In this document: positions 49,194 through 55,200 of the stretch, piece by piece
Position numbering within the stretch: position 1 is the first letter of the stretch
How the letters are laid out: each line of letters begins with the position of its first letter
Origin: Tubiluchus corallicola
Taxonomy: Eukaryota; Animalia; Priapulida
Reading direction: 5' to 3'
Length of the DNA: 64,000 bases
Assembly: GCA_030141605.1 (NCBI GenBank)
Contig: JAQGDQ010000102.1
Span: 511,266-575,265 of the forward strand
Notes under the pieces: model-generated
Told to the model about the DNA's origin: nothing
The model's database searches: none
What the model saw: the letters and a program-made list of their open reading frames with translations, nothing else
Program-made: the position numbers and the translations under genes

Positions 49194-49290
49194 ATGTTAC
49201 GAAATAGCTCGTATTTAATCAATGTGAAACGTTGTAGCAAGCCGGTGATGTGTTGTAGGGCTTGGACGGCGTTTGTTCGTCATTTCGCCA
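49194..49290 (+). CDS. NFS1: Putative first coding exon encoding a mitochondrial presequence (NFS1 exon 1, possibly shared with OXSM)
   Basis: atcATG is the first in-frame ATG after a TGA at 49179. Encodes [32 protein letters not shown] (no D/E, basic residues, R-H-F-A-S processing-type motif). Ends with phase-1 donor GCCA|gtatgt, which matches the phase-1 start of NFS1 exon 2 (A+GT = Ser). Confidence 0.72.
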
Positions 49291-52200
49291 GTATGTACAC
49301 GCTTTACGTATTATAACTTTACTTTACAGGTAGATTTTAAACACCTATCTTAGACATGGCGTGATATTGTATTACCTTCTGACTTAACTTTACAACAAGG
49401 AAAATATTTATATCTGTATTTTTTATTTTATTGTTTACCTGCATGTTGTCAATTACAAACAAACGGGAAAAACAGGCAAAAGTTACAAATTACAGCTGAT
49501 AGAATTATAACAGTTATTAATAAAAGTCACGTGATGAAAAATCGGAAAGGGTATTGTTTCAGTACATCACTACTCACCACATGCTGTTAAAAAGAAAAAT
49601 GTAAAATCTCTTCCTTGATACTGCACTGTGTGCTCCAATTACTGCAGCTATCACATGTTGACTGGAAGTTGGAGGAGGGGGTGTCCCAACCAGTGCGGGA
49701 CAATCGAGTTCGACGTGTTATAATTGTTTGTTCATCCTGCTACTTGGTGGCATTTAACTAACAACCCCTAAGGACAGTTTCCAGTTCTGGAATCAAGGTC
49801 ACTTTTTCTTGTCTTTTATGTTAAGCCTAGCCAGCAGCATATTAGTTGGAATCAGAATAGCTCAATGTTTGTAAAAAAGGTTTATTTTGCATAATTTTAG
49901 CATTCTGAGGTACATTTCTTTGCTGTGTAGAAAAGAGAAATTCAGTAGCTACGTAAGCCGTTTCACATTACAATCTATAAAGTGAAAAAAATAGTTAGTT
50001 TTGAGCATTTTCTTTCATTCATCAGCCGATTTTTGATAACTTGTGCTGTACTGAAACATGGAGTCTCATTCTGATTTTTCATTGTGAGATTTTTATTAAT
50101 TATAGGCCAGATGTCTACCTCTGTCAAGTTGATCCGTCGTGGTACGTGTCCATTACTTGCACGCAGTTACAGCGTGCCGTCAAGCCGTAGAGTTGTAGTA
50201 ACCGGTTTGGGGTTGGTGACTCCACTGGGAGTAGGAACACAGCACGTTTGGAACGAAATTCTCGGTGCCAGATGCGGCATAACCAAACTTCCCGCCGAAT
50301 TTTCCGGAATTCCTTCTCAGGTTGGAGCGTTCGTGCCAAGAGGGTACGAATCCTGGAAGTTCGACGAAGATTTTTGGTGCTCACCCAGTGAGAGAAAGAC
50401 AATTGCGCCGGCAACACTCTTTGCCGCAGCCGCTTGCGAAGAGGCATTGACGGACGCCAAATGGAAGCCGACAGATGCAGGTGACCTCGAACGAACGGGA
50501 GTTGCAATTGGCGGCTGTAGTGTTATGGCCGTCAAGGACATCATCGTGACAGCTGAGGCTTTCGGGAAAGGCTATAATAAAGTGCATCCGTATTTCATCC
50601 CTCGCATATTGACAAACATGGTTTCTGGTTTTGTTAGTATAAAATATGGTTTTCAGGGTCCGAACCACTCTGCATCCACGGCTTGTACGACTGGTTTACA
50701 TGCTATAGGCGACTCGTACAGGTTCATAAAGTACGGTGATGCAGATGTTATGATATGTGGTGGTGCCGATGCATCTATCGAACCCGTTGTTGTTGCTGGA
50801 TTTGCACGAATGAGGGCATTAAGCACAGATTTTAACGAAACTCCAGAGAAGTCATCCAGGCCATTCGATAAGGATCGAGACGGTTTTGTAATAGGCGAAG
50901 GTGCCGGGATTGTTGTTTTAGAGGAATATGAACATGCTAAGAGTCGCGGTGCTAATATTTATGGGGAAATTTTAGGATACGGTCTTTCCGGTGATGGCTA
51001 CCACATATCGACTGCTCGTCCGGATGGAATTGGTGTGGCACAGTGTATGCAGGCTGCTGTGAGAGAAGCGGGCATTTCTCTCGAAGATGTCACATACGTC
51101 AACGCACATGCTACATCCACACCATCAGGAGATCGAGCTGAGTGCGTCGGAATAAGGCGAGTGTTTGGTGAATACACCAACCGGTTGGCAGTTTCGTCAA
51201 CGAAAGGAGCAACAGGTCACTTGCTAGGAGCAGCTGGAAGTGTGGAAGCCATTTTCACCATATTAGCTTGCAACATGGGACACATTCCTCCCACTATCAA
51301 CATGATATGGTGCGAAGAGGAGATAAAGGATTGCGGTATGAATTTGGTGCCACTGGCACCTCAGGACTGGTCCAAGGAAGAGAAACGTCGCATAGCTTTG
51401 ACCAACTCTTTCGGTTTTGGTGGAACGAACAGTAGCTTGTGCATTGCTGACTTATGATAATTGTTAGTCATAGTCTTTGTTTGATGCAAATGATCATTGC
51501 AATACATAAAGCGAATAGCTGGGTCTTCAACAGTATTTAAATTTCTAATCTTGACAATGCTTCCTGATGTGATGTATTGGCTGCATTGCCAAAATTCCCA
51601 CAATGCACCGCGCTTGTTGTCATTGTGCAACAAATAAAACTGTTTTGAAATTGGCATTTGTAAAATCGTTGTCTTCAACTGACGATACGTGTTTGAATTG
51701 CTTTAGCTGTTCGTCGTTAGGTTAAACAGTTTTCCTAGATCATTTACTGAACTCTCTGAATTATTTTTTCATGTGTATACGTATTAAATCACTGGCTAAA
51801 GTTTACATTTCTCCTCAAACAAGAAATTAGTTCGTGAAGCAGATTAGCCTTAGGGTTGGTTTAGGGTTACGATTAGGGTTAAGGTCAAGGGTAGGGTTAG
51901 TGTTAGTGCGTTTAAATTGTGTTATGAACTGTAAACTCCTTCCAAATCATTTTTCTGTAATGCTTATTCTGATATTTGTATACTAGATAATTCTTACTTA
52001 TGCACAGTTTAGTGTAATCGCTGTTAATTAAGTAGATTTTTTGTTTTCTGTATAATTATTTCACTTTAGGTTATGCATGTTTATACCTCAATCATCAGCA
52101 AAATCCTATAGATTGTATAAATAGTTGACGTCTTGTATGGTAAACTGTTCGCTGATCATCATTTATCGTTCATCACAACTTGTCACCATTGATCAAACTA

Positions 52201-55200
52201 TATGTACATTTTATATTTTCTATTTATGTTAATGGTCTGGGTGGCCTGTACGTTTTGTGGTATTTTTGCCGTGTACGGGACTTCCAGCCAACATCAGTAT
52301 GCAAACTACAAATGCAATTTTATTGTTTCCAAATTGTCATGTGGGTTGAATAAGAAATAAAAGTTAAAAAGAGTTAAGTTTAAAGTTTTCGTCTTTCACA
52401 CGTACCTGACTCATCTCTATCCTAGAATGTTTAAACGTGATTGTTGGGGATTGTTTGGTAAGTCGATTAAGAAAAATGAATGTCAATGCAATTTGAAAAC
52501 TTTATGTATCTGTAGATAATCTGTACATCTGAACAGAATTTTTTAAATGCTTTTGTTGAAATCTGATAAAAGATCATGAAAACAGCATTGAAATTTTTAA
52601 AATTTTGGCTTGAAACTTAAGATTAATTTTAAAATAAAAAATGAAGCTGCACATTTTAGTTCTATGACGAAATTATAAACATGGTTAAGTGTATAGAAAA
52701 ACATTTAAATTAACTGGTCAGTTTTCTTGAAATAACAAGCTGATGCAGACCACTCTGACATTATATGTAATAGTACAGCGTGGTACATAACATTTTGCTA
52801 ATGAGATCTAGAACAAGTTATAGAACAGAACAATTTTTTTACATCAAATTACTGTTGAAACAATTTTGAAGCTGTGCAAGATACCCGAGGTTTAACAACT
52901 AAATTTTGGGGCCATGTTAGATTTTCTATTGTTTCAGCAGTACTTTGATGTATTAAATTGTTCTGTACTCGTTGCATCTGCACGCCTTAGCAAAAGGTTA
53001 TGCACTGCCGTGTGTGTCTGAAATGCATGAACAGGCATTTTGCTTAAACAGAATAAGTGCATTAGCAAGTTATCCTTTTCTAAATTTGATACTAAAGTTA
53101 AAGGATTGAGTCCGCAACTTTGTCTTGTGGATTTATGGAACTGCATAGCTGGAGGAGTCGTGGAATCATTCCGTTTTTTCAATCGTTATTTTCCACATCC
53201 AGCTTCAAAGCTGAAATGCTAAGTTTCGGATAGCTCATTTTAGTTTTTCTGGACCCATTCCAAGAATTGGTCCGAAACAATCAGTTTTGTCTTGCATCAC
53301 CATCAACGTCATTGCGGACATGATAAAAAATCAGACCACAGCTGTGGATTCTGCTGCATCTACGATTTTCTTAGGGACATATTGAGAAGACGTTCATCTA
53401 CATGTGGTCACCTTCATGCCAAAAGGAGTCTCACCATCTCGCTACACTAAATCAACAACTCTGCTTTAGAAATTATTGATTTTTAGTGGCACGTTCCTCA
53501 CAAGTCCAAAAACTTTTGAACTAAATATATAGGTCCACTAAAACTAACTGGAAAACTAAATACATGCAACAATATTTATTGTATGTATCATATGAATGCC
53601 ACAACTGCACAGTAAATCCAAACATATTTGTCTTTGCTTTTGTTCATTCTCTGTTGACTGTGGTCATCCATGGTGACATACAGCGAGACCTCTTTATACT
53701 ACCACTCTGGTACTACAGAAAAAGTTGGCACTAAGCGAGTTTGTGCATTAATACACACGTCTGGGCAAATATGGACATTTTGTTTTGCCAAAAATCTGCA
53801 CATTAAGCAAGGTTGCCATTATAATATGGTGCAATAATACACACGTCTGGGCAAATATAGGCATTCTGTTTTGCCAAAAATCTGGGCGTTAAGCAAGGTT
53901 GGCATTAACAAAGGGCGGGGAGCGGTTATAACGAGGTTTGACTGTATTCATATCTTAAGCACCAATGCGGTGATTGTATTCGCTTATATGCAGTTTCTCT
54001 GCAAAAGATGTGCAAATGCTGTGCGACTGCTTCACGACAACGCCTGTGTAAAAAGTCTGCAAATATTTTTGAAATAGTTTTAGAATACTCACATTTTTAC
54101 ATATTCCAGGTGAGAGCGTTCCGGAAACCAAGAAAGCATTGCTGGGAAAGGATGACCTGCGGCCATTATATTTCGATGCTCAGGCCACAACTCCATTGGT
54201 AATTTTCTGTCCAGCTTATCTCTTCTGTAATTGAAAGAAGATTTACTTACTCCAGCTTAAAATATTCTTTACTTTACCCTTGTATTTATGGCTTTTTACT
54301 AGTCAAACACAGCAAAGAAATCTGCTTGCTGCAACTTTTGTCATATAAAATTTGCACACGCATTTGAGGCAAGTCAAGCAACTTCTGTACATGCAGACAC
54401 AATCTACTATAGTCATTTAGACCTACTAGATGACTGATAGGCAAATTGATTCCTTTTCTGGGTTCATCGAGTGCACACAAGCAAAAATCTCTATCCTACA
54501 ACTTACTGCAGAGATTTTGCCTCATGTGCAACAGATGCATGTTTTGTGTGCTTCAAATACCAACAACATTGCTTTACAATGTACGAGAACTTGTGTCTTC
54601 TTTTAATAAACAATAAAAATAAATCGGGGGACCTACCACAACCGAGAATAAGACATTCGAAATATAGGGAGAAACAGTCTTGCACTTTTCAGTCTTGTTT
54701 TGTTAAAACTGGAATTTTAGCTGAAATTTCCAGTCAAGTAGAAAGGAATGATCTCGTTAAGATCCTCTATGAAGAAGTTTTCCATAATATTTCATTTCAC
54801 AAATAAAAATGGATGGACTAAGTTGAAGATATTGCAACATTGATAGGATGGTGTTGATACACACGTCATAGCACACTTGTTCCATTGAATGTCATGGTGG
54901 CTGTCATTACAGAACAGGTGATGAGGTGGAATACACATCTACCTGTCGGCCCACTGAAGCGATGAGTTCCATAGCGACGGTTTATAACTGGTATTCAACG
55001 CCACTAGGCAATCGTTTCACACCAATGGGTCTATCACAACAATAGAGGAGGTCAAAAATAAATCGCATTTTGCCCTTGTAACAATATTAAAAACCGTAAT
55101 CACGATATTTCACTTCTTCTTGCGGGAATTGTCTCATTTTTATTATTATTTTTATTTGTGTTAATTTAAGAGGCATCATTGTGTACATTAAATAATTATT

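Follow-up and report, generated by a model that had tools for sequence, protein, structure and literature searches.

An OXSM gene nested within the first intron of NFS1 in the priapulan Tubiluchus corallicola, with a candidate shared presequence exon

Among the described systems closest to the locus studied here is the sdh2-rps14 gene of grasses, for which Kubo 1999 and Figueroa 1999 are reportedly the sources cited. [quoted passage not shown] In Drosophila, FlyBase holds 10 pairs and one triplet of genes with common coding sequence (CDS) and 130 genes with a common promoter and non-coding exons; these "genes with CDS overlap" include mRpL13/CG10602 (49 residues), Su(var)3-9/eIF-2gamma (80 residues) and Rpb4/Ada2a (21 residues) (PMC4528330). 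The human genes CPNE1 and RBM12 have a promoter and non-coding 5' exons in common and wholly separate coding sequences; the proximal gene has its own AAUAAA, and the choice between the two genes is proposed to be made through splicing and polyadenylation (PMC2568002). Here, we describe a stretch of 64,000 nucleotides (nt) from Tubiluchus corallicola (contig JAQGDQ010000102.1, positions 511,266 to 575,265 of the forward strand; hereafter the window), in which the OXSM gene is nested in intron 1 of NFS1 and plausibly uses the first coding exon of that gene. OXSM carries out the condensation step of fatty-acid synthesis in mitochondria, and NFS1 donates the sulfur for iron-sulfur assembly.

The exon mapping shows that the nesting is real, with OXSM located on the same (plus) strand between exon 1 and exon 2 of NFS1. 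The coding part of exon 1 (49194..49290, plus strand, 97 nt) is open from its ATG, ends in phase 1 and is followed by a GT donor (49291..49299, plus strand, score of 5.6 bits); OXSM is placed in NFS1 intron 1 because this segment is very likely the first exon of NFS1. The OXSM open reading frame (ORF; 50111..51457, plus strand) encodes 448 residues, and its coding part contains no intron. It is preceded by a 3' splice-site-like region (50071..50110, plus strand) composed of a branch-point-like pentamer, a T-rich tract and three AGs, and an AATAAA hexamer (51633..51638, plus strand) is found 175 nt past its stop codon. We infer that this hexamer may serve as the proximal poly(A) signal of OXSM; the hexamer is frequent in the AT-rich DNA here. 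Additional AATAAA hexamers were present at 49519, upstream of the OXSM ORF, and at 50576, inside it. NFS1 exon 2 (54110..54198, plus strand, 89 nt) starts in phase 1, contains no Met and needs one upstream base, and it is followed by exon 3 (55254..55370, plus strand), which was identified by homology. From the exon-1 donor, in-frame open joins can be made to the AG acceptors at both 50105/50106 and 54109/54110. A preliminary description of this DNA had reported the same-strand nesting, the AATAAA hexamer after OXSM and the single donor in frame with both the OXSM acceptor and NFS1 exon 2. Upon recheck, its coordinates and sequence statements were all correct: the nesting is borne out by the exon mapping, the hexamer is present and both joins are open. 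The identification of the two genes as OXSM and NFS1 was likewise confirmed by Pfam domains and homologue matches.

Splice sites were scored with matrices trained on homology-derived sites of the window (24 donors and 23 acceptors), a small training set in which part of the sites from the neighboring UBR3 gene may be misplaced. Candidates for NFS1 exon 1 were defined as segments of at least 12 codons running from an ATG to a phase-1 donor, and the region 48995-54070 was scanned for them with the OXSM CDS excluded. The scan revealed 45 candidates, two of which encode 20 or more residues, include three or more Arg and lack acidic residues, and both of these begin at 49194. Only one of the two donors paired with this ATG is usable, namely that at 49291 (score of 5.6 vs −2.1), which ranks fifth among the 83 GT sites in 48995-50110 and scores higher than 9 of the 24 inferred true donors. 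The encoded peptide of 32 residues contains 4 Arg, 2 Lys and no acidic residue and carries an R-3-like motif at its end; presequence character, here and for OXSM, was judged by composition alone and not with a trained targeting predictor. Additionally, the GC content of exon 1 is 0.44, as in the other exons, compared with 0.34-0.37 in the flanks, and the exon gives NFS1 a leader of 49 residues, where those of its homologues span 41-66 residues (16 of the 22 listed, in which the motif was found). Comparison of the exon-1 peptide with 105 other leaders revealed no homology (best p=0.04, uncorrected; Priapulus NFS1, p=0.20). The scan, which yielded no other plausible first exon, supports the previous proposal that 49194-49290 is the first coding exon of NFS1, and we consider this very likely from the sequence. 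Upstream of the exon-1 ATG, or overlapping it, are a pair of small ORFs of 8 and 9 codons (49165-49207), which suggests a very short 5' untranslated region (UTR) or leaky scanning.

The OXSM ORF encodes a complete ketoacyl synthase (PF00109, E=2e-55; PF02801, E=2e-37) with catalytic Cys-His-His motifs at residues 190, 331 and 365, as located with patterns that we take to be those of this motif. Its named matches are OXSM proteins with sequence identities of 47-57%; the best match among those listed was a 351-residue fragment (69%) without the N-terminus, and Priapulus OXSM was absent among the 120 matches listed. A quick tree was built from 54 rows, of which 53 were chosen from these 120 matches; it put the protein inside a bilaterian clade with a support of 96 and did not place the host animal. 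We also compared two public sequencing runs (X1 and X2) with the region 48400-55450. An X1 contig differed from OXSM at 12 positions, and 9 of the 12 differences were synonymous (expected fraction of 0.23, p=0.0002). By this measure, OXSM is functional and under purifying selection. The 796-residue prediction P0380 places mariner-type transposase domains before an OXSM-like domain, a fusion that is probably a gene-model artefact.

Three AGs are present at most 25 nt from the OXSM ATG, at 50088, 50105 and 50110, with scores of 8.5, 5.3 and 4.4, respectively; with the same matrices, the homology-defined NFS1 acceptor at 54109 scores 4.7. When joined to the exon-1 donor, these AGs give ORFs of 35, 482 and 58 codons, and only 50105 is in frame with both exon 1 and OXSM. 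A branch-point-like A at 50074 lies 14 nt before 50088 and 31 nt before 50105, so that with this A the first AG at the usual distance is 50105, which is also the in-frame one. In particular, the site at 50088 is a GAG, and G at position −3 occurred in one of the 23 inferred acceptors. The spacing between the exon-1 donor and the 50105 acceptor is 815 nt, and 15 of the 16 UBR3 introns span 500-2741 nt. Moreover, any transcript from the upstream promoter must run through the OXSM acceptor and the AATAAA. Also in favor are the purifying selection on OXSM, the like layout described for other gene pairs, and the A at −3 of the exon-1 and UBR3 ATGs where the OXSM ATG has C. On these grounds, the use of exon 1 by OXSM mRNAs (49290 to 50106) is plausible.

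The arrangement that we favor consists of one promoter and a common first exon, with OXSM as a proximal terminal exon that carries a doubled leader, and we consider the chances that it is correct to be about even. In this arrangement, a bidirectional promoter common to UBR3 would drive an NFS1/OXSM pre-mRNA, in which exon 1 would be spliced either to OXSM (49291 to 50106), whose poly(A) signal would end the transcript near 51650, or past OXSM to NFS1 exon 2. The OXSM precursor would then have 482 residues with two leaders in tandem. Presequence processing is well established, and on this basis matrix peptidases would be expected to trim the tandem leader and yield normal mature OXSM. The ratio of OXSM to NFS1 would result from competition of the distal acceptor with the proximal acceptor and its poly(A) site. 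Most likely, OXSM already had an ATG and a presequence when it entered the intron, so that its gain there was a housekeeping promoter rather than an address tag, and the output ratio of the two genes is most likely fixed rather than regulated. We find it improbable that a regulated splice/poly(A) choice, made at one presequence exon, shifts output between two pathways coupled by acyl-acyl carrier protein (acyl-ACP), as in the operon-like switch of the preliminary description.

Several observations, on splice sites, leader, NFS1 body, sequencing runs and relatives, weigh against the favored arrangement. Because one of the three AGs gives an in-frame product, a frame match of this kind would occur about once in three times by chance. 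The 50105 acceptor is weak, with only 6 of the 23 inferred acceptors scoring below it, and four GT sites in the intron (49910, 49880, 49330 and 49551) outscore the donor at 49291, so OXSM may have its own non-coding first exon. As an independent nested gene, it would be driven by a promoter within 49291-50105, have either a non-coding first exon there or no 5' intron at all, start at its own ATG and have nothing in common with the NFS1 mRNA, which we consider possible but on balance unlikely. Such independence would agree with the complete ORF and its normal leader, with the stronger intron donors at 49910 (7.7) and 49880 (6.1), and with a TCACGTGA box at 49527 and one E2F-like and one YY1-like word in the intron, found with motifs that we presume to be correct; these promoter words are too short to decide. 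Same-strand nested genes are also known in animals (PMC8527503). In contrast, the base at −3 is C for the OXSM ATG and A for the exon-1 and UBR3 ATGs, ten ATGs lie within the intron, and the intron shows no rise in CpG or GC (CpG observed/expected of 0.55), in a CpG profile that is uninformative. Furthermore, a functional acceptor at 50105 would presumably be equally open to the exon-1 donor.

The leader of OXSM also argues against a need for the shared exon. The ORF starts at an ATG of its own and opens with a leader of 25 residues (50111..50185, plus strand) that is presequence-like by composition: Arg occurs three times and Lys once, acidic residues are absent, an R-3-like motif is present, and the hydrophobic moment is 0.68, compared with an orthologue median of 0.61. 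Its length is normal (orthologue median of 29, interquartile range of 16-40; 111 of 118 orthologues scored, a set rich in predicted genes whose starts are unreliable), whereas the fused leader would have 59 residues, and only 4 of the 111 orthologue leaders reach at least 55. As the own ATG and leader are of the usual length and make-up, OXSM probably does not need the exon-1 presequence; the claim that exon 1 supplies a presequence required by OXSM was therefore not upheld.

The own leader would be kept if the promoter and 5' UTR alone were common, because OXSM would then be translated with it, as in CPNE1/RBM12. In this case, the OXSM mRNA would be formed via a donor that precedes the exon-1 ATG (e.g., 49168) and/or the CAG at 50110. 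The donor at 49168 scores 4.8, CAG makes up 15 of the 23 inferred acceptors, more than any other form, and an exon ending at 49167 would end in ATG and join 50111 in frame; in the Drosophila survey, non-coding sharing is far commoner than coding sharing (130 genes vs 10 pairs and one triplet; PMC4528330). However, the transcription start may fall downstream of 49168, and the join of 49291 to 50111 produces a 58-codon out-of-frame ORF across the OXSM start, and we regard 5'-UTR sharing as distinctly unlikely. An acceptor 0-5 nt before the OXSM ATG would also fit trans-splicing of a leader onto 50106 or 50111, with OXSM as a downstream or nested operon gene, and spliced leaders are able to mimic shared first exons (PMC8527503). 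Nevertheless, no clear acceptor precedes the UBR3 or NFS1 ATG, and the papers listed yielded no account of trans-spliced leaders in priapulans (PMC7986045 contained no priapulan terms), which is weak evidence; trans-splicing appears highly improbable.

The structure of the NFS1 body bears on whether a choice between two enzymes exists at all. NFS1 exons were mapped over 54110-63504, with PF00266 (class-V aminotransferase) in two of them, and the sequence is closest to mitochondrial NFS1. In addition to those given above, six exons were identified on the plus strand by homology and splice scores (57134-57232, 57695-57788, 58923-59057, 60103-60260, 60654-60759 and 63423-63504), and about 75 C-terminal residues lie beyond the window. 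A total of 46 conserved codons, including the TSGATESNN motif, are expected between two phase-0 exon ends in the gap at 55371..57133 (plus strand) and were not found on either strand of the whole window. The best score for the missing segment was 24-27 in the gap and 21-29 in 11 control stretches, whereas true segments score approximately 200, and the conserved NFS1 domain is thus incomplete in this assembly. If this NFS1 copy were broken, there would therefore be no two-enzyme choice at the locus. The absence of these codons from both strands would suit a decaying duplicate or a deletion allele, with exon 1 serving OXSM alone, which is compatible with the favored splice. In contrast, the nine NFS1 exons present have stop-free joins, GT-AG ends and 72-76% identity to three homologues, and assembly loss accounts for the gap equally easily. 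We consider assembly loss to be the likelier cause and regard a broken NFS1 copy (decaying duplicate or deletion allele) as improbable.

Neither the sequencing runs nor the relatives supported the favored splice. X1 looks like DNA, as one contig spans the border between the intron and exon 3; its depth was 3-540, and exons 1 and 2 were hardly covered in it. The three contigs from X2 included none on OXSM or NFS1 exons, and this run showed a 94-nt skip within 2 nt of the UBR3 intron at 48678-48771. No joint from 49290 was seen in X1 or X2, but the junctions were scarcely covered. A search for sequencing runs listed no RNA data set containing this stretch, which speaks neither for nor against the splice. 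A metagenome scan revealed 11 loci of 35-53% identity, which are too distant for synteny, and the search of representatives returned mostly multi-domain synthases. No relative close enough to test conservation of the nesting was found among the OXSM matches, the metagenome loci or the representatives.

The neighboring UBR3 gene lies head-to-head with exon 1. Its first coding exon (48772..48994, minus strand, ATG at 48994) was located by tblastn of UBR3 homologues, and the gene extends on the minus strand from 48994 to about 2300, with a first intron of 94 nt (48678-48771) and zf-UBR in the next exon. Priapulus caudatus UBR3 was the closest among the matches listed: its identity was 92% in the UBR box, where none of the other 119 exceeded 84%, and 68% in the N-terminal part, where the other 14 shown reached no more than 60%. 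This by itself points to a probable priapulan. Priapulus caudatus UBR3 and NFS1 are found on separate contig records. Because only 199 nt (48995..49193) part the UBR3 and exon-1 start codons, we infer that this gap contains a bidirectional promoter for UBR3 and NFS1. Two upstream ATGs (49165 and 49178) and the weak donor at 49168 are located in the gap, and the four bases before the ATG are identical for UBR3 and NFS1.

Further sequence elements were observed in the window. The TCACGTGA box in the intron before OXSM is palindromic and spans 49527-49534; three such boxes occur in the window. A degenerate TTAGGG-like run was present at 51850-51910, past the OXSM poly(A) signal, and X1 contigs go on into TTAGGG repeats. 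We also observed two-copy direct repeats at 53743-53907 and 59066-59373, the first of which belongs to a dispersed family seen in X1 and X2. Long simple repeats and a minisatellite lie in the UBR3 introns and at the window end (12880-13170, 20350-20830, 21630-21900, 28200-28900 and 63700-63983).

Fatty-acid synthesis is coupled to iron-sulfur assembly through acylated ACP, one of the subunits of the NFS1 complex (PMC4991935). If one promoter and one splice choice do give rise to OXSM as well as NFS1, the two processes would be linked through their genes too, and the ratios of the isoforms would tell whether the nesting was selected for co-regulation or was an insertion accident near a housekeeping promoter. 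Annotation of such a locus would merge or truncate the OXSM and NFS1 genes.

The preliminary description knew of no earlier account of the arrangement, but its kind is already known in grasses, Plasmodium and Drosophila. The pair NFS1/OXSM was not found in such an arrangement in the literature searched, outside which most subscription journals lie, and Nfs1 was absent from the 12 supplement files searched of the Drosophila survey (PMC4528330). As in grass sdh2-rps14, an unrelated organellar gene lies on the same strand behind the targeting exon of its host. The grass gene differs from the locus here in that its chimeric mRNA has been demonstrated and the sdh2 peptide does the targeting of rps14, as far as the available accounts describe; because OXSM has its own leader, the present locus lacks one defining feature of sdh2-rps14. 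Plasmodium ALAD/SPP is similar in that two unrelated enzymes have a targeting exon in common (a candidate here) and different in that the target is the apicoplast, the genes are adjacent and the exons are described as directing both proteins. Exon 1 is in frame with both OXSM and NFS1, and the two proteins are distinct and belong to different Pfam families, as in the Drosophila genes with CDS overlap; the Drosophila pairs, in the part of the survey available, are curated FlyBase gene models, whereas OXSM and NFS1 act in linked pathways. CPNE1/RBM12 resembles the locus in that the proximal gene has its own AATAAA, and both coding and non-coding exon routes are present in the sequence here; its common exons are described as non-coding, unlike the candidate coding exon. 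If the splice is real, the locus would work like these known cases, and for now it is likely to be one further case of a known arrangement.

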